Source of the DNA: an uncultured Acidobacteriota bacterium
GTDB taxonomy: Bacteria > Acidobacteriota > Blastocatellia > RBC074
Assembly: GCA_963796275.1 (NCBI GenBank)
Contig: CAWCKY010000003.1
Location: forward strand, 128,001-192,000
DNA: 64,000 nt
Direction: 5' to 3'
Made by a program: the position numbers and the translations under genes. Shown in pieces: positions 22,103 through 60,830 of the stretch. Positions within the stretch are counted from its first letter, which is position 1. Each line of letters opens with the position of its first letter. The notes under the pieces were generated by a model. The model was not told the DNA's origin. It saw nothing but the letters and a program-made list of their open reading frames with translations, and ran no database searches.

Positions 22103-22987
22103 CTAATATTTTCTCTCAACAATAAACCGAGCAATCTCCTGTAACATTCTCGTATCGCGACCGATCGTGGTTACCGAAGAGATCGCCGCGCGGCTGAGCC
22201 GGTTGGCCATCTCGCTAGCACTGTCCATCCCATAGTACGCAGCGTAAGTCGCTTTTCTTTTCGCTATGTCTTTCCCCGGGGTCTTCCCCAACTCTTCACT
22301 GGTCGCAGTCTGATCGAGGATATCATCAGCGATTTGAAACGAAAGCCCCGCCTTCTCGCCGAATGCCGTCAAAGAGTTCAATTCATTATCACTGGCGGCG
22401 CCGATAATTGCGCCGATGCGGATCGCGCAGGTTATCAAAGCACCTGTTTTGGCCCGGTGGATAGCCTCAAGTTCTTCAGCCGTCAATTTCTTACCCTCGG
22501 AATGAATATCAAGAACCTGCCCGCCAATTAAGGCGCGCGTCGTCCCGGCAGCCTTTGCGACCTCAGAAATGACGCGTAATTTATTCTCAGCTCCAACGGA
22601 TCGATAGTCGGCCAGCGTGCGGAATGCCTGAGTCAGCAGAGCATCGCCCGCCAATATCGCCATTGCCTCTCCGTAGACTACATGATTGGTTGCCCGCCCG
22701 CGTCGCATATCGTCGTCATCCATCGCGGGGAGGTCGTCGTGAACCAGAGAGTAAGTATGAATCATCTCGATCGCACAGGCGGCAGGCAATAACTGGTCTT
22801 CCGAAGCACCGAAGATTTCACCAGTTGCGATAGTCAGGATCGGGCGCAATCGTTTACCGCCGGCGAAGATGCTGTAGCGCATAGCCTGATGAATCGTCGA
22901 GGGGCTCTCCGATTCTGCCGGCAGCAATCGATCGAGCCATGTATCGACCAGCGCCGATTTTCCCTTGAAGTATTCTTTTATATTCAC
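22103..22987 (-). CDS. ispA: Farnesyl/geranylgeranyl diphosphate synthase
   Basis: [38 protein letters not shown]; follows xseB. Confidence 0.93.
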
Positions 22988-23000
22988 TTTCGCCTAATAC

Positions 23001-23335
23001 CTAAAAGGGGATTGAGTCATTAAGCTTCTCGTCATTCTCACCATTGCCACGAGATGTTGAATTCGGCTTATCAGGACCCTGTTGAGACGCCTGATCGAGT
23101 TGCGCCGCTTCGAATGGAATAGACTTTATCTCACCGCGTTCGCGGAGCAACAATTCAACCTTGCGTTCGGCCTCCTCCAATTGAGACTGGCATTGGCGAG
23201 CGAGCACGACGCCTTCCTCGAAAAGCGCGAGAGCGCGTTCGAGCGGCAGATCCCCGATTCAAGCTGACCGACGATCTTTTCGAGAGCCGATAGAGATTCT
23301 TCAAATCCTTGTTCTCTTTCCTTCGACTTTGGCAT
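23001..23335 (-). CDS. xseB: Exodeoxyribonuclease VII small subunit with an extended C-tail; split by an apparent 1-base deletion at 23252-23255
   Basis: FEESLSALEKIVGQLESG joins DLPLERALALFEEGVVLARQCQSQLEEAERKVE once one G is restored; lies between xseA and ispA. Confidence 0.92.
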
Positions 23336-23341
23336 TTCAAC

Positions 23342-24757
23342 CTATGATTTCAGTTCACGAAGCGTGCCCTGAAAATCCTCCTTTCGTTTAACTTGACAGG
23401 ATACACTGCCGTCTTCGAACCGGAGTATCAGATCCTGCCCTTCGCTGAGGGGAGCTGCGCGCGAGACCAGGCGCCCATCTTCATCTTTAACCAACACGTA
23501 ACCACGACCGAGTACAGCGAGCGGAGAGAGCATATCCAGCTTACCTGCTGCAACAACCAACCTATGCCGCTTGCGTTCGATCAATCTATGAATGGCGCGC
23601 TCGATTCGATCATCGGCAGACTTCAGTCGTGACGCTTTGCTGACTAAGGGCGCCCGGAAATTCGTCGCATCGAGTCTTCGCTGCAACCCGTCCAATCTCG
23701 ATCGTGCGGAGCGCAGATTCCCGAGGAGCGCATTGGCTATCTGAGACTCGACTGCTCGTATTCTGGCTGAGTGCGAGAGCACCGATCTGGCAGTCTCTGC
23801 AAACCCTCGGCTCTCGATCAAATCACGCAAGCTCGCCCGCCTGCGCAGGAGGTCATAAACTATCACGCGCCTGAGGGACGATTTCAATCCCTCAATTCTG
23901 GTATGGAGATCGCTCGATTCAGCGGCAACCATCTCAGCTGCTGCAGAAGGAGTCGGTGCCCGCATATCGGCTACAAAATCAGCGACGGTAAAGTCGGTCT
24001 CATGGCCGACGGCGGAAACAATCGGGATATCGGATTCGAAGATCGCACGCGCGACGTGCTCTTCGTTAAAAGCCCATAAATCTTCCGTCGACCCGCCTCC
24101 GCGGCCGACTATCAGGACATCGATCTCGTTCCCCCGATTCTTGGCGTATGTGTTGAGCAAACGAATCGCGTCGGCGATTTCGCGACCGGCGCTCGCTCCC
24201 TGAACGCGAGCCGGTGCGATGATCACATCGATGCCGCGGTTGCGCCGTTCGAGTATTTGCAGCATGTCCCGCAGCGCGGCGCCAACCGGCGAGGTGACAA
24301 TTCCGACTCTGCGTGGAAGCATCGGCAGTTTGCGCTTGCGGGAATCATCGAAGAGGCCCTCCGCCGCGAGACGTTTGACCTGTTGCTCGAATGCGAGCTG
24401 CAGAGCGCCAACGCCGACCGGCTCCATGGTCTCGACGATGATCTGATATTCACCGCGCGGCTCATAAACGCTCAATCGCCCGCGGATGCGGACTTCGAGC
24501 CCATTCTCCGGTTCAAAACGCATCAGCCGATTCCATTGCTTGAAATGCACGGCGCGGAGTTGTGATTCCGCATCTTTGAGCGAGAAATACCAGTGACCGG
24601 ATTGGTGGCGTTTATAGTTTGAAATCTCTCCCTGCACATGAAGAGTGAAAAACTCGACCTCCAGTATATCCTTAATTCGTTCATTCAATTCACTGACGGT
24701 CAGAATGTGGCGTTCAGCAAAGAGAGCTGCGAGTAATTTGGAACTAGACTCATTCAT
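23342..24757 (-). CDS. xseA: Exodeoxyribonuclease VII large subunit
   Basis: [50 protein letters not shown]. Confidence 0.97.
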
Positions 24758-30986: not shown

Positions 30987-32105
30987 TTATAATCTCATTG
31001 GCATGATGATATAACGGAAGTCGTAATCGGCCTCACCCTGTTCCTTAAGTTGAGCGCGGGAATTTCCGTCTTTAAATTCAAAAGTGACTTCGTCGCTCTG
31101 GGTCACGCCAAAAAAATCCAACAGATATTGAGCATTAAATCCTGTCGTGATTTCCGGACCTGCATAGTGGACAGGTAAAACTTCGCCGGCTTCACCTACT
31201 TCCGCCGCCTGGGAGGTGATATTCACCTGCCCATCTCCCAATTCGAATTTAATGGCGTGTGACCGTTCATCTGCCATCAATGCAACTCTCCGTATGGCTG
31301 AAGAGATTCGCTCGCGCTCAATCACAAATGTATTGTTATTTTCTTTGGTCAATACCATTTCATAGTTGGGAAACTGTCCGCTTAACGTACGAGAAATAAG
31401 AAGCCTTTTCCCGACTTTAAAAAAGAGATGATTGTCGTCATAGCTGAACTCTACCGGATCATCGGTTTCCGCGCACAATCTCGCCAATTCCGAGAGAGTC
31501 TTCTTGGGAATCAGAACATCGATCTTGGCGTTTCCAGATTCACCCGATTCACTTAATTTGTGCGATTTTTCGATATAAGAGAGGCGATGCCCATCGGTTG
31601 CAACCATCCTGATATTATTTCCTGAGAATTCGAATTTGGCGCCATTCAATGCATATCGGGATTCCTCGTTTGTGATTGCAAAAAGAGTTTTGCTGATAAA
31701 AGTTTTTAAAAGTTCGGAGGGGATCGATGCGTTTAACCCTTTAAATTCCTTGATCTCGGGGAAATTATCTTTGGCAAGCCCCAGCATCTTGAACCTCGAT
31801 CGCTCGCAGATGATGCTGACCTGTTCATTTTCTCCTCGCTTAATCTCTATCTCAGCATCCGGCAAGGCACGTACGATTTCAAATAGCTTTTTCGCCTGGA
31901 TACAGTTTGTCCCTTCCTTGATCACTTCGGCTTCGCACCAGGTAGTTATAGACACATCCAGATCCGTTCCCTTGATACTCAATCCGCCGTCTTTAGCTTC
32001 GATTAGCAGGTTTGACAGGATCGGAATCGTGCTCTTTTTTTCAACGACACCCTGAATAAGGTTAAGTTCCTTAAACAATAAAGACTTGGTAACTCTGAGA
32101 TGCAT
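30987..32105 (-). CDS. dnaN: DNA polymerase III beta sliding clamp
   Basis: [39 protein letters not shown]. Confidence 0.98.
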
Positions 32106-32417
32106 CTTCTCCTCCGACCTGGACTCATTTTACTACTAATACTAAGAATATCTTGTTTATAAATCATAGTAGTAGTAATAGGAGTTGTGGGAAAGTTGAA
32201 AAACAATCGGTATTTATTGATATATCAGTAATTAACAGTGTGAAACCTCTGTGGAAAATACTGTGAATATCGCATTTTTAGGGGCAGAATTTGTGGAAAA
32301 AATCATTTCGATTAGGCTTTTCCACAGTATCCACAGCGGAGATTGAATGTATCTGTGGAAAAAAAGGATAAACCTATTTGCAACTATCAATTAGACTGTT
32401 GATAAGTCTGTGGAAAT
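32106..32417. other. Replication origin oriC (dnaA-dnaN intergenic) with DnaA boxes, DnaA-trios and an AT-rich DUE
   Basis: Box-like 9-mers TGTGGGAAA 32186, TGTGGAAAA 32250/32292/32354, TGTGAATAT 32262, TTTTCCACA 32318, GTATCCACA 32327, TGTTGATAA 32397. TAG trio array at 32167-32181 next to the AT-rich tract 32145-32166. Confidence 0.88.
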
Positions 32418-33777
32418 GCCCGTGCTGATCATATAATGCTGTGATTTTATTTATGCTGTGCAGGACAGTTGTATGGTGTTTTCCAGCGAACTCGCGGCCG
32501 ATTTCCGGAAGGCTGGCTTTCGTTAGTGTCTTACATAGATACATTGCTACTTGTCTAGGCAAGGCGATATTTCTGGCATTTGATTTTGATTTCAAGTCCG
32601 CCACGCGGAGGCCATAATATTCTGCGACGACTTTTTGAATACCTTCGATCGTTATCGCTCGTTCCTGGTCCTCGACCAGGTTCTTCAAGGCTTCCTGTGC
32701 CAGCGAAATATTGATCGGTTCACCGCGCAGTGAGGAGAGTGCAGTCAACCTGACGAGCGAGCCCTCGAGTTCACGAATATTTGACCTGATCTTGTTAGCG
32801 ATAAAAAGGGCGACATTATCGGGCAGATCGAGTTTTTCGGACTCCGCTTTTTTGCGAAGGATCGCGACCTTGGTCTCGAGATCCGGCGGTTGGATGTCTG
32901 CGATTAAACCCCATTCAAATCGCGAATGCAGGCGTTCTTCAAGCGTTGGAATCTCTCGGGGAGGGCAATCCGATGAGATGACTATCTGTTTCTGTCCTTC
33001 GTAGAGGGCATTGAATGTGTGAAAGAACTCCTCCTGAGTTTGTACTTTGCCGGCCATGAACTGGATGTCATCGATGAGAAGGACGTCAATCGATCTATAC
33101 TTCTCACGAAAAGTCATCGTCTGATTATACCTGATGGCATTAATCAACTCGTTCATGAATTTTTCCGCCGTGATATAGCAAAGCCTCAGGTGGCGATTCA
33201 GTTCTTTCACACGGTGGCCGATAGCACACATCAGATGTGTCTTGCCCAGACCAACACCCCCGTAAATGTAGAGCGGATTGTAGGTTTTCGAAGGGGCATC
33301 GGCGACTGCCAACGACGCCGCATGCGCAAACTGATTGCATGATCCAACGACGAAACTTTCGAATGAATATTTGAGATTGACCGGTAAATCGGTGGGTTCA
33401 GATTCGTTATATGACGGTTTCTGAACCTCCTTCTCGTTTGAGGTCGAGGTTACTGAAGGCGCCACACCATTGTGATTGTTCGATGAGGCGCCGTCCAATC
33501 GTTTGGTTCCGCGCCTTTCCTGCGGCTCGATTTTCGAAGATACTTCGAATGTGATAGCTCGCCCTGCTAGATCTGCCTCTTCCAGAGATTCTTCGAGAAC
33601 CTCACTGTAGTTGTTGACAATCCAATCCTCAAATACACGATCCGGCACACGCAGCCGAATTGTACCGTTATCGCTACCCGCAAAGCTTATTGGTTTGAAC
33701 CATGTTGTGAAACTTTCATGATTGACCCTCTTCTCAACTCCTGAGAGTACAGAGTCCCAAAGATTGGTCTCGCTCAT
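32374..33777 (-). CDS. dnaA: Chromosomal replication initiator DnaA
   Basis: [54 protein letters not shown]. Confidence 0.99.
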
Positions 33778-54169: not shown

Positions 54170-54234
54170 AACTTCTCCTTCACCAGCCGCCTCCAGCCGC
54201 AAGGATGCCAGGATCGCTCAACAGCGAACGCGGT

Positions 54235-55257
54235 TTAAGGCGATTGTTTGGCGTTCTGAGCGCCCTTTGGGATGGCATTGTAACCGGCCTTTGTCCTGAT
54301 CCTCAGGTCCTTTTTGCCTGGCAATTTAACTTCGATCTTGCGGTATTTGCTGTCGAAGTTTTCATTGCTGGGCTGATAGGCGACCAGATACTGGCTGCGC
54401 AACTCGCGCGCAATCGCTGCCAGGCTCTTTTCAAGTTCTATCACCTCCGCTGTAAAGAACGCCCGCCCGCCGGTGTCCTCAGTCAGGCGTTTGAGGTCTT
54501 TATCTTCCCGGCGATCTACCATCCCTCCCTGTACGCCGAATAGACCGCCCGCTTTCGTACTGATCGCGAAGATGACTGTTTCGGTACGCTGTGCGAGGTC
54601 GATCGCTTCTTTCAAGTTGCGCTCGCTCGCCGTGTCCTCGCCGTCAGTGATGATGACCATGGCGCGGCGACGGCCTGGTGATGCGGCCATCTTCTCTTCA
54701 CAAATCCGGAAGATCGCGTCGTACATGCGCGTCTCACCCTGCGCTTTTACCTTGTAGACTGCAGACGAGAGCAGATCGAGACGGTTGGTGAAGTCCTGGT
54801 GAAGTTCGACCTGGGAATCGAATGTGGCGAACAACGCCCGGTCCCTGCGCGACGAGAGCATCGTCTCGAGAAAAGAGACTGCCGAGTCTTTCTCGAATTT
54901 CAGTTTGGGTTTGACGCTGTTCGAAGTATCCATGAGCACAGCTACATCGAGCGGCATGTTGCTCTGCTGCGCGAAGGAGATGATCTTTTGCGGAACTTTG
55001 TCCTCAAAGATTTCAAAATCACCCTCCTTGAGATCGGTCACGAAGATATTGCTTTTACCTTCGGTGACGGTGATAGGCAGACGAACGTTAATAGTACGGA
55101 TGTCCAGATTCTGTTCGAGCTGGTTATCTTCAGCGGGTTTTGTCCCCGGTTTCTGTTTTGGTTCTGAGTTCTGCGTTTGCGCATCTGATGTATGCAGAAT
55201 CCCGATTACGGCGCAGAATAGAACGAGAGCGATCAACAACCGGCGAAGCTTGATCAT
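54235..55257 (-). CDS. VWA domain protein, acidobacterial VWFA-related type, exported
   Basis: Signal peptide, DTSNS, TRMYDAI, IITDGED, TGGRAF, QYLVAY. Confidence 0.88.
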   Translation of the reverse strand: MIKLRRLLIALVLFCAVIGILHTSDAQTQNSEPKQKPGTKPAEDNQLEQNLDIRTINVRLPITVTEGKSNIFVTDLKEGDFEIFEDKVPQKIISFAQQSNMPLDVAVLMDTSNSVKPKLKFEKDSAVSFLETMLSSRRDRALFATFDSQVELHQDFTNRLDLLSSAVYKVKAQGETRMYDAIFRICEEKMAASPGRRRAMVIITDGEDTASERNLKEAIDLAQRTETVIFAISTKAGGLFGVQGGMVDRREDKDLKRLTEDTGGRAFFTAEVIELEKSLAAIARELRSQYLVAYQPSNENFDSKYRKIEVKLPGKKDLRIRTKAGYNAIPKGAQNAKQSP

Positions 55258-55483
55258 TATTTCCTCCGATTACCAAGCTATAGGTTCTTTACAGTTAATA
55301 GAACGTACGAAGATTATAGTTTGCGTGGGAACTAGCAGTAAAGCGGGCTGGAAAAACAATACCGCGGCTCGTAGGGAGAGAGTGCCTTCAATGAAGCTAA
55401 ACACTCTGTCCATAGCGGACGCGGTATTTGATCGGTTCGAAATTACTTCTGGCACGCAATCCAGAAATTTTTCGTCGCTCAAA

Positions 55484-55978
55484 TTACGGAGTTTTCGGCT
55501 CTTCCCCTCCGGATTCGGTTCCCGCGGCTGCACCTATATTTGTTCCTTCTCCGTGTGGTATTGCGCTCGGTGTGGCCGATTCGACGAAGCGTATCGTGCC
55601 GTCTTCGATCACATTAAAATCGCGGGAGGCAGTACTGGCAGATTGTCTTGTCGCCTGGACGCAGTATTTATCAGGCGTCGCTTCGGTAGAGGTGTAGAGG
55701 TAGCCGCTGACGGCCGAACCGCTGGAATAATTCGAATCAAGAAAGTTTTCCTGACCAAGCTCTTTAAGTGTTCCAAATTTCCCTCTCACGGCGCTGTGAT
55801 GAGCTTGAGCAGTATGAATGGTCCTCAAGGTTTCTATCGTAGCAGTTTCACGACCGATCTTGATGTTTTCAAGTAATTTGGGAACGGCCACCGCCGCCAG
55901 AATACCGATGATTGCAACGACGATCAAGAGTTCGATAAGTGAAAAACCAGCCTGCAGACGTCGATCTCGGTGCTTCAT
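55484..55978 (-). CDS. Type IV pilin-like protein (class III signal peptide)
   Basis: QAG|FSLIELLIVVAIIGILAAVAVP prepilin cleavage/methylation motif. Confidence 0.92.
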   Translation of the reverse strand: MKHRDRRLQAGFSLIELLIVVAIIGILAAVAVPKLLENIKIGRETATIETLRTIHTAQAHHSAVRGKFGTLKELGQENFLDSNYSSGSAVSGYLYTSTEATPDKYCVQATRQSASTASRDFNVIEDGTIRFVESATPSAIPHGEGTNIGAAAGTESGGEEPKTP

Positions 55979-56037
55979 ATACTTAATTAGCTCCTTCCTG
56001 ATGGGTATCTATTTTGAGGTCTATGCTTCAAAACACA

Positions 56038-56062
56038 AACGATTGAAGATCGAATCTGTTCC
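56038..56062 (-). promoter_or_regulatory. ECF-sigma-type promoter upstream of the pilin
   Basis: GGAAC-N16-CGTT, about 60 bp before the ATG. Confidence 0.55.
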
Positions 56063-56164
56063 AATATTACTACATAGAAAGGCCGGGGGAGAAGGCAGTC
56101 GGAAGGCGAGAGTCTGGCGGACGGGGAGACTGAACGACTGGACGCGGAAGGAAGTTTTTACTCC

Positions 56165-56857
56165 TTAATTTTTCTTTCCATAGCTTTGCAGCGCGATTAC
56201 CAGCGCCAGGATGGAAATAATAAGCCATAACACCACCCAGAGCGTCGCCGGAATCAGAGTTAGCTGCTCCATCATGCGTGCGTCGCTGTGGCTATTTGAT
56301 GTCGTCGAGATCAGGAAGAGCGTCTTGAGGTCCAAGAGCGCGTTAAGGCAACACTGAACCGCGAGGAAACTCAGGAAGAAATGGGCCAGTCGTTTACCCG
56401 CTATCAGTGCAATAAAAATCAGCCCGCCAGAGAGGATTATCCCGGTAACCCAACTGAACGGATCACTCGCGTAGAGGCCAGTCAAGGCGAGGATCAATGC
56501 CGCGGTGACCGTCAGCACCGATTTCGTATTGTTCCCATCACGGCATAACACGAGCAGTCCGGCGCCATAGGCGGTACTCGCTAGATAGCCGGCACTGGCG
56601 ATCACTAGTTGCGATCCGCCGCGAGTATAGGTTTCGCCGCTGGCATTGGTATAGATCACCAATTGTTCCACCGAACCGAAAGTGATGAGCGCGGCGAGCG
56701 CGTGGCCGCCTTCGTGAATGAAGGTCACAAACAGGCGCAGCGGATAGACCAATAACGACGCGAGCGGTATTAACCAGATGATGCCGGCCAGGAGCGATGC
56801 TCCGAGCAGAAATATGAGGGAATCACCGGTTTTTTTTGGTGTTGGCATAAACCCCAA
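56165..56857 (-). CDS. M50B family membrane metallopeptidase
   Basis: IHEGGH, AGY, HSDA; multiple TM helices. Confidence 0.88.
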   Translation of the reverse strand: MGFMPTPKKTGDSLIFLLGASLLAGIIWLIPLASLLVYPLRLFVTFIHEGGHALAALITFGSVEQLVIYTNASGETYTRGGSQLVIASAGYLASTAYGAGLLVLCRDGNNTKSVLTVTAALILALTGLYASDPFSWVTGIILSGGLIFIALIAGKRLAHFFLSFLAVQCCLNALLDLKTLFLISTTSNSHSDARMMEQLTLIPATLWVVLWLIISILALVIALQSYGKKN

Positions 56858-59604: not shown

Positions 59605-60830
59605 TTACTCATAACGCAGAGCTTCGATCGGATCCAAACCTGCGGCTTTCCGCGCAGGGTAGTATCCGAAGAAGATTCCCACCGCCGCGGAGAAGATCAC
59701 CGAGCCGGCGATTGCCGATAACGAGACGAGAGTCGGCCATCCCAGCATCTTCGGTATGATGATCGATATCGCTATCCCGAAGATTATGCCGATGAAGCCG
59801 CCGATCAGGCTGAGTACGATCGATTCGATCAGGAACTGCTTACGCACTGCCGAAGATCGGGCACCGATCGCCATTCTGATGCCGATCTCGCGCGTCCGCT
59901 CGGTAACTGAAACGAGCATTATGTTCATTATTCCGATGCCGCCGACGAGCAGCGAGACACTTGCAATGCTCCCCAGAAGTATCGTCATAATCCGGTTGGT
60001 TTCCTCGGCAGCTTCCGCCACATCGGTCAGATTGCGTACGAAGAAATCATCTTCCTCGTTCGGTGCAAGCCTATGACGCTGGCGTAATAAATCCGCGATC
60101 TGTTCCTGAGCCGTGTAGGTCGCATCGGGGGAAATAGCAGAAACATAGGCGAATTGAACATATGTAATCGCCAGAAGCTTTTTCTGAACCGTTGAGTATG
60201 GCGCGAACAGCGATGTCATCCTGATCGCGTCCTCCCGGGTCCTGCCCTTTGGCGCGCATGACGCCGACGACCCGGAACGGCAATTCACGGACACGCAAAG
60301 TCTGTCCCACCGGATCCATGCCCGGGAAAGAGATTTTCCGCGATAGTCTCACCGATTACTATGACACGCGCAGCTGTGCGGACATCCGCTTCGCTGAAGA
60401 ACTCCCCGCTCTGTACTTCCCATTTGCGAATTTGCGGGAACTGCTCATTTACGCCCTGAACCTGGCTATTCCAGTTTTGATTTTGGAAGATTAACTGCGA
60501 CCGTGCATTGACTGTGGGTGTTGCCATCGAAACGCTCGGGATTTCACGCCGGATCGCCTCGATATCTTCTACCGTAAGGTTGTTTCGGTTGGATTGGCCA
60601 GTCCCGCTCCGCACACCGCCGACGTTCATCGAACCGGCGCCCACAAAGAGCAGGTTCGTGCCGACGCTGGCGATCTGTTCCTGCACCGATGCCTGTGCCC
60701 CTTGCCCGATGCTGACCATGGCGATGACAGCGCTTACGCCGATGATGATGCCGAGCATCGTCAATACCGAGCGCATCTTGTTGCGCGCCAGTGCGCGGAA
60801 CGCGATCCTGAAAATCATAAATAAATTCAT
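59605..60830 (-). CDS. MacB-like ABC transporter permease, split by two apparent +1 indels (~60322 and ~60211)
   Basis: RSVLTMLGIIIGV..., then FPGMDPVGQTLRV...QDDI, then FAPYST...GGIGIMNIMLVSVTERTREIGIR...DPIEALRYE, in three successive frames. Confidence 0.9.

Follow-up and report, generated by a model that had tools for sequence, protein, structure and literature searches.

The acidic tip at the C-terminus of bacterial SSB (SSB-Ct) is treated as a signature of SSB itself, namely as the one peptide that guides more than a dozen enzymes of replication and repair to ssDNA. The helicase-primase gp4 of phage T7, which is not an SSB, carries a tail similar to that of the phage SSB, gp2.5, and does so for the same partner. 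In gp2.5 the tail is acidic and its essential C-terminal Phe contacts a basic patch of this partner, as described in PMC12339929. In the bacterial case, the terminal Phe is recognised through its side chain and alpha-carboxylate by a hydrophobic pocket together with a basic residue, and a basic ridge accommodates the Asp residues (PMC3159472). In addition, PMC7584906 describes binding of the SSB C-terminal peptide to the OB fold of SSB itself, at the ssDNA site, and it is via this contact that GFP fused to the peptide enters SSB droplets (Harami et al. 2020, PMC7584906). E. coli ExoVII is described in PMC10835039 as an XseA4.XseB24 complex in which the XseB C-termini are disordered along a long stalk, this disorder comprising the last 12 residues of XseB.

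The xseB gene considered here lies in a window (the whole stretch of 64,000 nucleotides that was analysed, from an uncultured Acidobacteriota bacterium of the class Blastocatellia) in the usual xseA-xseB-ispA arrangement, the order on the minus strand being xseA, xseB and then an ispA-like polyprenyl synthase. This part of the window, 12361-33777, is the region of the chromosomal origin, with all of its listed genes on the minus strand; it contains parB, parA, rsmG, mnmG, mnmE, jag (R3H), yidC, yidD, rnpA and rpmH, followed by ispA-xseB-xseA and, farther along, by dnaN (30990-32105) and dnaA (32377-33777). The features of the locus are the following.

23342..24757, minus strand: xseA, the ExoVII large subunit (471 aa), directly upstream of xseB on the same strand
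23252..23335, minus strand: 5' piece of xseB, residues 1-28, MPKSKEREQGFEESLSALEKIVGQLESG (MPKS...QLESG), matching the N-terminus of intact homologues in the alignment
23252..23255, minus strand: G4 run (CCCC on the plus strand), the meeting point of two frames
23133..23252, minus strand: xseB core, residues 29-68, covering the hairpin from the last part of helix 1 through the turn to helix 2 (Pfam PF02609, AlphaFold2)
23109..23132, minus strand: internal conserved motif EIKSIPFE, residues 69-76 (alignment)
23025..23108, minus strand: disordered linker, residues 77-104 (AlphaFold2 pLDDT <50)
23004..23024, minus strand: acidic tip LNDSIPF, residues 105-111, an SSB-Ct-like putative docking peptide
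23001..23003, minus strand: xseB stop codon, TAG
22103..22987, minus strand: ispA-like polyprenyl synthase, immediately downstream of xseB

As assembled, xseB is not one open frame: residues 1-28 are offset by one base from the rest, and the frames switch at the GGGG run (23252-23255), where intact relatives have five G. The original prediction had read the gene without seeing this split. Among the 30 other genomes searched, all 29 with a match, two of the same genus included, carry xseB in a single frame; a contig of a ~94%-identical relative has one extra C behind 23251 (run X4); and a Logan contig of 15,938 nt encodes an intact 111-aa XseB (hereafter P0001) that is 100% identical over the 83 residues compared. 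With the frame intact in all relatives and in an independent contig, the break is in all probability a homopolymer indel error in this 7-contig assembly, and the full 111-aa protein is therefore probably made by the organism. If the frameshift were instead real, xseB would be either a pseudogene or a gene decoded by a -1 ribosomal slip at TCG-GGG-A, and the tail would be absent or rare. The sequence would allow for such a slip, as a Gly-tRNA at the GGG codon might shift its pairing back by one base and so give exactly ...LESG-DLPLE..., and a real frameshift also agrees with the four G of the window as opposed to the five of relatives and with an identical contig (run X1) that ends at 23253, inside the G run, without bridging it; a further search across the frameshift (run X3) returned nothing. 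We nevertheless regard a real frameshift as quite improbable in view of the in-frame relatives and the intact Logan protein, and also given that conservation, which one would expect of a programmed slip, is lacking, that xseA is intact, and that a MacB-like ABC permease gene of the same window is split as well, which points to indel errors in the assembly. The permease gene, the second probable indel of the window, extends over 59608-60830 on the minus strand as two overlapping ORFs, one with the MacB_PCD domain (60288-60830) and one with the FtsX domain (59608-60294), and the break lies upstream of 60340. On the plus strand, four overlapping or abutting ORFs with no Pfam match (54205-54540, 54473-54754, 54824-55873 and 55818-56165) may be an indel-broken gene or novel small genes.

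Apart from its C-terminal extension, the XseB encoded here is an ordinary one. The product of the intact xseA gene consists of an OB fold (residues 19-112) and an Exonuc_VII_L domain (135-455; PF02601 at 333 bits in Pfam). In xseB, the frame 23004-23252 on the minus strand reads DLPLERALALFEEGVVLARQCQSQLEEAERKVELLLRERGEIKSIPFE followed by the 35 residues AAQLDQASQQGPDKPNSTSRGNGENDEKLNDSIPF; on its own it matches PF02609 with 46.3 bits, covering positions 18-51 of 52, and P0001 does so with 73.4 bits against a cut-off of 24. A Pfam search of the genome revealed no second xseB. AlphaFold2, run with a 41-sequence alignment, predicts a helical hairpin (helices 11-27 and 32-67) with pLDDT >90, and gives residues 76-104 a pLDDT of <50. 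Between the two lies EIKSIPFE, in which P74 is nearly invariant and F75 invariant among homologues; judging by the alignment, it is the ordinary XseB '..PF..' motif, which in short-tailed XseB is found near the C-terminus, and the same motif is close to the end in XseB of Enterobacter/Escherichia, Bryobacteraceae and Solibacteraceae. P0001 has no match to the SSB family PF00436 at an E-value of 0.01 or better, and this XseB is thus not an SSB, only SSB-tailed.

The tail that follows the core had been described originally as about 35 polar or acidic residues, and it is indeed there: it spans 23004-23108 on the minus strand and ends ...GENDEKLNDSIPF-stop, such that the protein terminates in ...SIPF, with a free C-terminal Phe preceded by Pro and Ile. 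The 9.46-Mb genome contains 40,805 frames that run from stop to stop over 80 aa or more; eight of them end in IPF, where 4.6 were expected from positional composition. Five of these eight have Asp at -4 (counted back from the terminal Phe), four of the five with a further Asp, Asn or Glu at -5, and these five are four SSB paralogues and XseB, the latter being the only non-SSB frame of the genome that ends D-x-IPF. The ending is not explained by chance.

Homologous XseB continue for 26-61 residues (median 40) beyond the internal PF motif; 26% of the residues in these tails are acidic and 8% basic, and the tails cannot be aligned with one another. Their tips, by comparison, form a clear logo, [DE]x4-5-[LF]-[DN]-[DE]-[SAT]-[IV]-P-F in 117 homologues, in which Pro and Phe never vary and reach full information content, with D or E at -4 in 113 of the 117, D (86) or N (21) at -5, and S, A or T at -3 in 107. 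In 37 distinct gene ends the Pro is encoded by CCC (16), CCG (9), CCT (8) or CCA (4) and the Phe by TTC (26) or TTT (11), the stop codons vary and the downstream DNA is unrelated. Such use of synonymous codons, together with varied stops and unrelated downstream DNA, argues for selection on the peptide, as opposed to a DNA element, for instance the ribosome-binding site of ispA. At the level of sequence and predicted structure, it is supported that the tail is composed in the manner of SSB, of a disordered linker variable in length and sequence and an acidic tip.

Conservation of the IPF end in orthologues was one of the conditions on which the original prediction depended, and it is borne out. 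In the organism's own family (f1), represented by 18 other genomes, 17 have an XseB match and the eighteenth (G004, which also contributes one SSB tip to the comparison below) is 70% complete. No conclusion depends on G004, nor on G175, G077 and G053, which enter a presence tally only. An acidic-[IVL]PF end is found in all 17 (11 IPF, 5 VPF and 1 LPF). Among the best 120 database homologues, which were retrieved with a query that included the tail, so that the ranking favours tailed proteins, 117 end in [IVT]PF (96 IPF, 20 VPF and 1 TPF), and the three exceptions look truncated. All 28 nearest GTDB loci, from MAGs titled Blastocatellia or Acidobacteriota and at least seven of them from the same genomes as the family and relatives set, end in [IV]PF; in six of the 28 the end is DFDDDIPF, i.e. 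the last eight residues of the SSB of Enterobacter and Escherichia ruysiae. Four MAGs within the Blastocatellia XseA clade (L095, L096, L100 and L107) are titled 'Heliomicrobium sp.', a Bacillota name, and these titles look mislabelled.

Beyond this family the ending becomes rare. It was proposed originally that XseB C-termini be collected across phyla and tested for enrichment of D-x-[IVL]-P-F ends. None of 12 genomes from six sister families of the class has an [IVL]PF end (one ends ...DEDAPPF, one ...EEEVF); the best-scoring 30 loci from a 401-genome sample of the phylum Acidobacteriota contain one (G291); and 20 further places with long open frames, picked by hand and hence a biased pick, contain two, G172, of the same genus as G291, and G344, of another class. 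The remaining 52 GTDB loci comprise one with a VPF end, 12, mostly from Pyrinomonadaceae MAGs, with an acidic run followed by VF, GF, NF or PF, and 39 without terminal Phe. Among 150 representatives two end in [IVL]PF, one of them from a Bryobacterales cluster, and about eight more in acidic residues and xF, this denominator being a rough one, as the 150 are the best of 25,019 matches of a core-only profile to 1.84 billion representatives and many are mis-framed. Terminal Phe is absent from all 30 Pseudomonadota XseB examined. The tail is thus confined to a few acidobacterial lineages, which the original prediction had not seen, and is not a general feature of XseB. On a quick XseA tree of 82 rows the own family forms one all-IPF clade (34 rows, SH-aLRT 98) and the IPF label needs at least four changes; the tip arose at least three or four times. 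The feature is thus a family-level trait with a few independent origins within Acidobacteriota. A caveat is that most samples come from one phylum and that related genomes do not count as independent observations.

In the sister clade, MAGs labelled Pyrinomonadaceae have an XseB with a short acidic tail that ends in Phe without Ile-Pro, for example DDESVF, ENENGF, DDDVF or DDESPF (loci L122, L124, L126, L133, L135, L137, L140, L141, L146, L149, L153 and L158). Judging from these ends, an acidic-Phe terminus may be older than the IPF tip and may possibly have had a local role.

The tip was also to be compared with the SSB tips of the same genome, which it matches. The five SSB paralogues of the genome end DDEIPF, EDDIPF, ADEIPF, ADDIPF and DDDLAF, and are located as follows.

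C7:826577-827104, C3:789627-790190, C2:719834-720916, C3:45929-46423 and C4:1538094-1538663: SSB paralogues of this genome (G000)

Three of them have ends of a common ...[LV][VG][SG]IE[EA]D[DE]IPF type, whereas in the C2 copy the linker is long and repetitive and the end is DDDLAF instead of IPF. In the own family, 23 of the 28 SSB loci read end in [IV]PF, typically as D-[DE]-[DEGS]-[IV]-P-F and with D, E, G or S at -3; one is cut and four end otherwise. Outside the family, EDDIPF ends both XseB and SSB in the independent lineage G344, and G172 pairs an XseB ending EDDIPF with an SSB ending DEDIPF. In two Pyrinomonadaceae genomes the SSB end DEDIPF stands against XseB ends of DDESVF or EDENVF. 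No consistent co-variation of Ile and Val at -2 between XseB and SSB was apparent by eye within the genomes of the family. Recent capture of an ssb 3' end was considered as a source of the tail and rejected: in blastn-short, the final 130 nt of xseB matched the five ssb genes of the genome only by chance stretches of 8-10 nt. There is thus no sign of recent recombination, and the likeness exists at the level of the peptide. A separate protein of 101 aa, very acidic and without a Pfam match, ends ...SSSDDPAYLPF (L233:10765-11067, minus strand, which equals G000:C4:1546764-1547066); its gene lies just downstream of a gene for a DdrB-like ssDNA-binding protein (PF12747, L233:11227-11712) and ~8 kb from an ssb paralogue, and it may carry another SSB-tip-like tail.

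Taken together, the notion of an SSB C-terminal-tip mimic on XseB holds with respect to its linker-and-tip anatomy, its conservation in orthologues and its match to SSB tips, with the qualification that the gene itself is split in the assembly. The reading that we favour, with a probability of roughly 0.55, is that the tip would function as the docking peptide at the C-terminus of SSB does, read in trans by SSB's partner enzymes or by SSB itself. An ordinary XseB hairpin, part of the coat of the XseA stalk, would in this case be extended by an acidic linker of ~30 residues and the tip [LF]-[DN]-[DE]-[SAT]-[IV]-P-F-COOH, the latter to be read wherever the cell reads SSB-Ct; candidates are the sites of SSB partner enzymes that combine a hydrophobic pocket with a basic ridge, the OB fold of DNA-free SSB, or both. 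Carrying many XseB copies, the ExoVII holoenzyme would display an array of SSB tips, through which the nuclease could be tethered to SSB pools or to the network of SSB partners. The multivalent display, or hub, that the original prediction envisaged would follow from the E. coli stoichiometry, XseA4.XseB24, which we assume to hold here. As a peptide equal to SSB-Ct would be presented on a flexible linker and in many copies, the same sites should read it. It is the binding of the tip, the identity of its partners, its copy number and its physiological effect that we infer. The genome, 94.7% complete, encodes RecQ, PriA and RecJ; it yielded no match to PF08411, the C-terminal domain of ExoI. As a point against reading in trans, -3 is mostly Ser, Ala or Thr in XseB and usually Asp, Glu or Gly in SSB, and this difference implies that affinity or specificity may differ. 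ExoVII, moreover, is not known to belong to the E. coli SSB network. Further points against this reading are the interruption of the gene in the present assembly and the sister clade described above, in which short acidic-Phe tails of XseB coexist with SSB ends of DEDIPF.

A more far-reaching version of this proposal, to which we give slightly less than even odds, is that ExoVII impersonates SSB: its stalk would bear a multivalent SSB-Ct brush, and the SSB hub code would thereby be used natively by a cellular protein other than SSB, having been invented several times independently. This could perceivably work in two ways. The nuclease might be loaded into DNA-free SSB pools or condensates, to be released by exposed ssDNA; alternatively, ExoVII might be physically coupled to SSB-partner helicases and nucleases such as RecQ, RecJ and PriA.

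Docking in trans has to be weighed above all against the tip acting in cis, that is, docking on ExoVII itself, at the N-terminal OB fold of XseA or at the catalytic head, as an ssDNA-mimicking lid that gates or autoinhibits the enzyme. The N-terminal OB fold is present in this XseA, the SSB peptide is described as binding SSB's own OB fold at the ssDNA site (PMC7584906), E. coli ExoVII is thought to begin in a sequestered form (PMC10835039), and the short acidic, Phe-ending tails of the sister clade could reach nearby surfaces only. Moreover, XseA substitutions specific to the family cluster in the OB fold (Q74, W75, L78, N85 and E88). None of the 19 family-specific XseA positions, however, is common to all three independent IPF lineages, and the OB-fold five occur in none of these; seven positions outside the OB fold recur in one IPF lineage and V423 in two. 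Such a lack of convergent XseA change accompanying the tail is what would be expected if the receptor pre-existed outside ExoVII. In addition, most XseB copies of the E. coli enzyme sit along a stalk of >20 nm, far from the head (PMC10835039), and the XseB tip of G344 copies that genome's own SSB tip, for which a private contact with XseA would have no need. A lid acting in cis therefore appears unlikely to us. A complex prediction for XseA 1-285 with the XseB tail 77-111 gave scores of 0.01 and 0.00 against a mark of 0.32, without controls and from alignments of 31 (XseA) and 41 (XseB) rows, and speaks neither for nor against such docking. The clade-specific cluster falls in XseA residues 74-88 (window region 24520-24538), and other Acidobacteriota have mostly S/G, Q/A/R, R/Y, D and H/K at the five positions.

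It is also conceivable that the C-terminal motif is a different signal that merely resembles SSB-Ct, e.g. a protease degron, a sliding-clamp-binding motif or a localisation tag. Many readers are served by short C-terminal motifs, clamp-binding motifs are likewise short hydrophobic peptides, and the -3 position is unlike that of typical SSB tips. The clamp consensus QL[SD]LF does not fit the XseB tip, which has no Gln, and the acidic run, the [IV]PF and the free C-terminus are all common to the tip and SSB, the two being identical over 6-8 residues in some species, which leaves a signal of another kind a slim chance. Less probable still is a non-specific acidic 'bristle' by which the long rods of ExoVII would stay in solution or away from double-stranded DNA, with IPF being incidental. 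The tail is acidic and disordered, as this would require, and short acidic tails do occur in many XseB; yet Pro and Phe stay fixed while the linker drifts, the codons of the tip turn over synonymously, and separate lineages have reached the same [IV]PF end.

If docking of the tip on SSB-Ct-reading sites in trans proves true, then a tip that is conserved, under purifying selection and repeatedly invented on a cellular nuclease would indicate that chromosomal proteins other than SSB can borrow the 'SSB code', and ExoVII, whose recruitment and regulation are poorly understood, would gain a concrete connection to the SSB network. Lineages that bear the tail and their tail-less sister lineages constitute a natural experiment in this respect. 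Among the papers searched, supplements apart, none connects XseB or ExoVII with a tail of the SSB type, although the phylogenetic supplement of PMC10835039, on length variation of XseB and XseA, might mention long-tailed XseB; an XseB with a putative docking tail of the SSB-Ct type, as recognised here from sequence, thus appears to have no published description.

With respect to known systems, the tail most resembles that of bacterial SSB (enterobacterial ...PMDFDDDIPF), having in common with it a variable disordered linker, an acidic tip and [IV]-P-F at a free C-terminus, with the last eight residues identical in some XseB orthologues. Unlike in SSB, it sits on a helical-hairpin nuclease subunit and not on an OB-fold DNA-binding domain, its -3 residue is mostly Ser, Ala or Thr, and its linker is richer in acidic residues. 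With canonical E. coli XseB (80 aa; PDB 8TXR) the protein shares the PF02609 core, the xseA-xseB-ispA order, the hairpin and the '..PF..' motif after helix 2; whereas XseB of E. coli and of the other Pseudomonadota examined stops a few acidic residues past the core and has no terminal Phe, that of the present lineage adds 26-61 residues and the IPF tip. The tails of T7 belong to a phage replisome, lack IPF and have T7 DNA polymerase as their partner, whereas here the tail is found on a subunit of a cellular repair nuclease. Finally, the chimera of GFP and the SSB tail was engineered and studied in vitro, whereas the fusion seen in XseB is natural, conserved and, if the copy number assumed from E. 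coli applies, present many times per complex.
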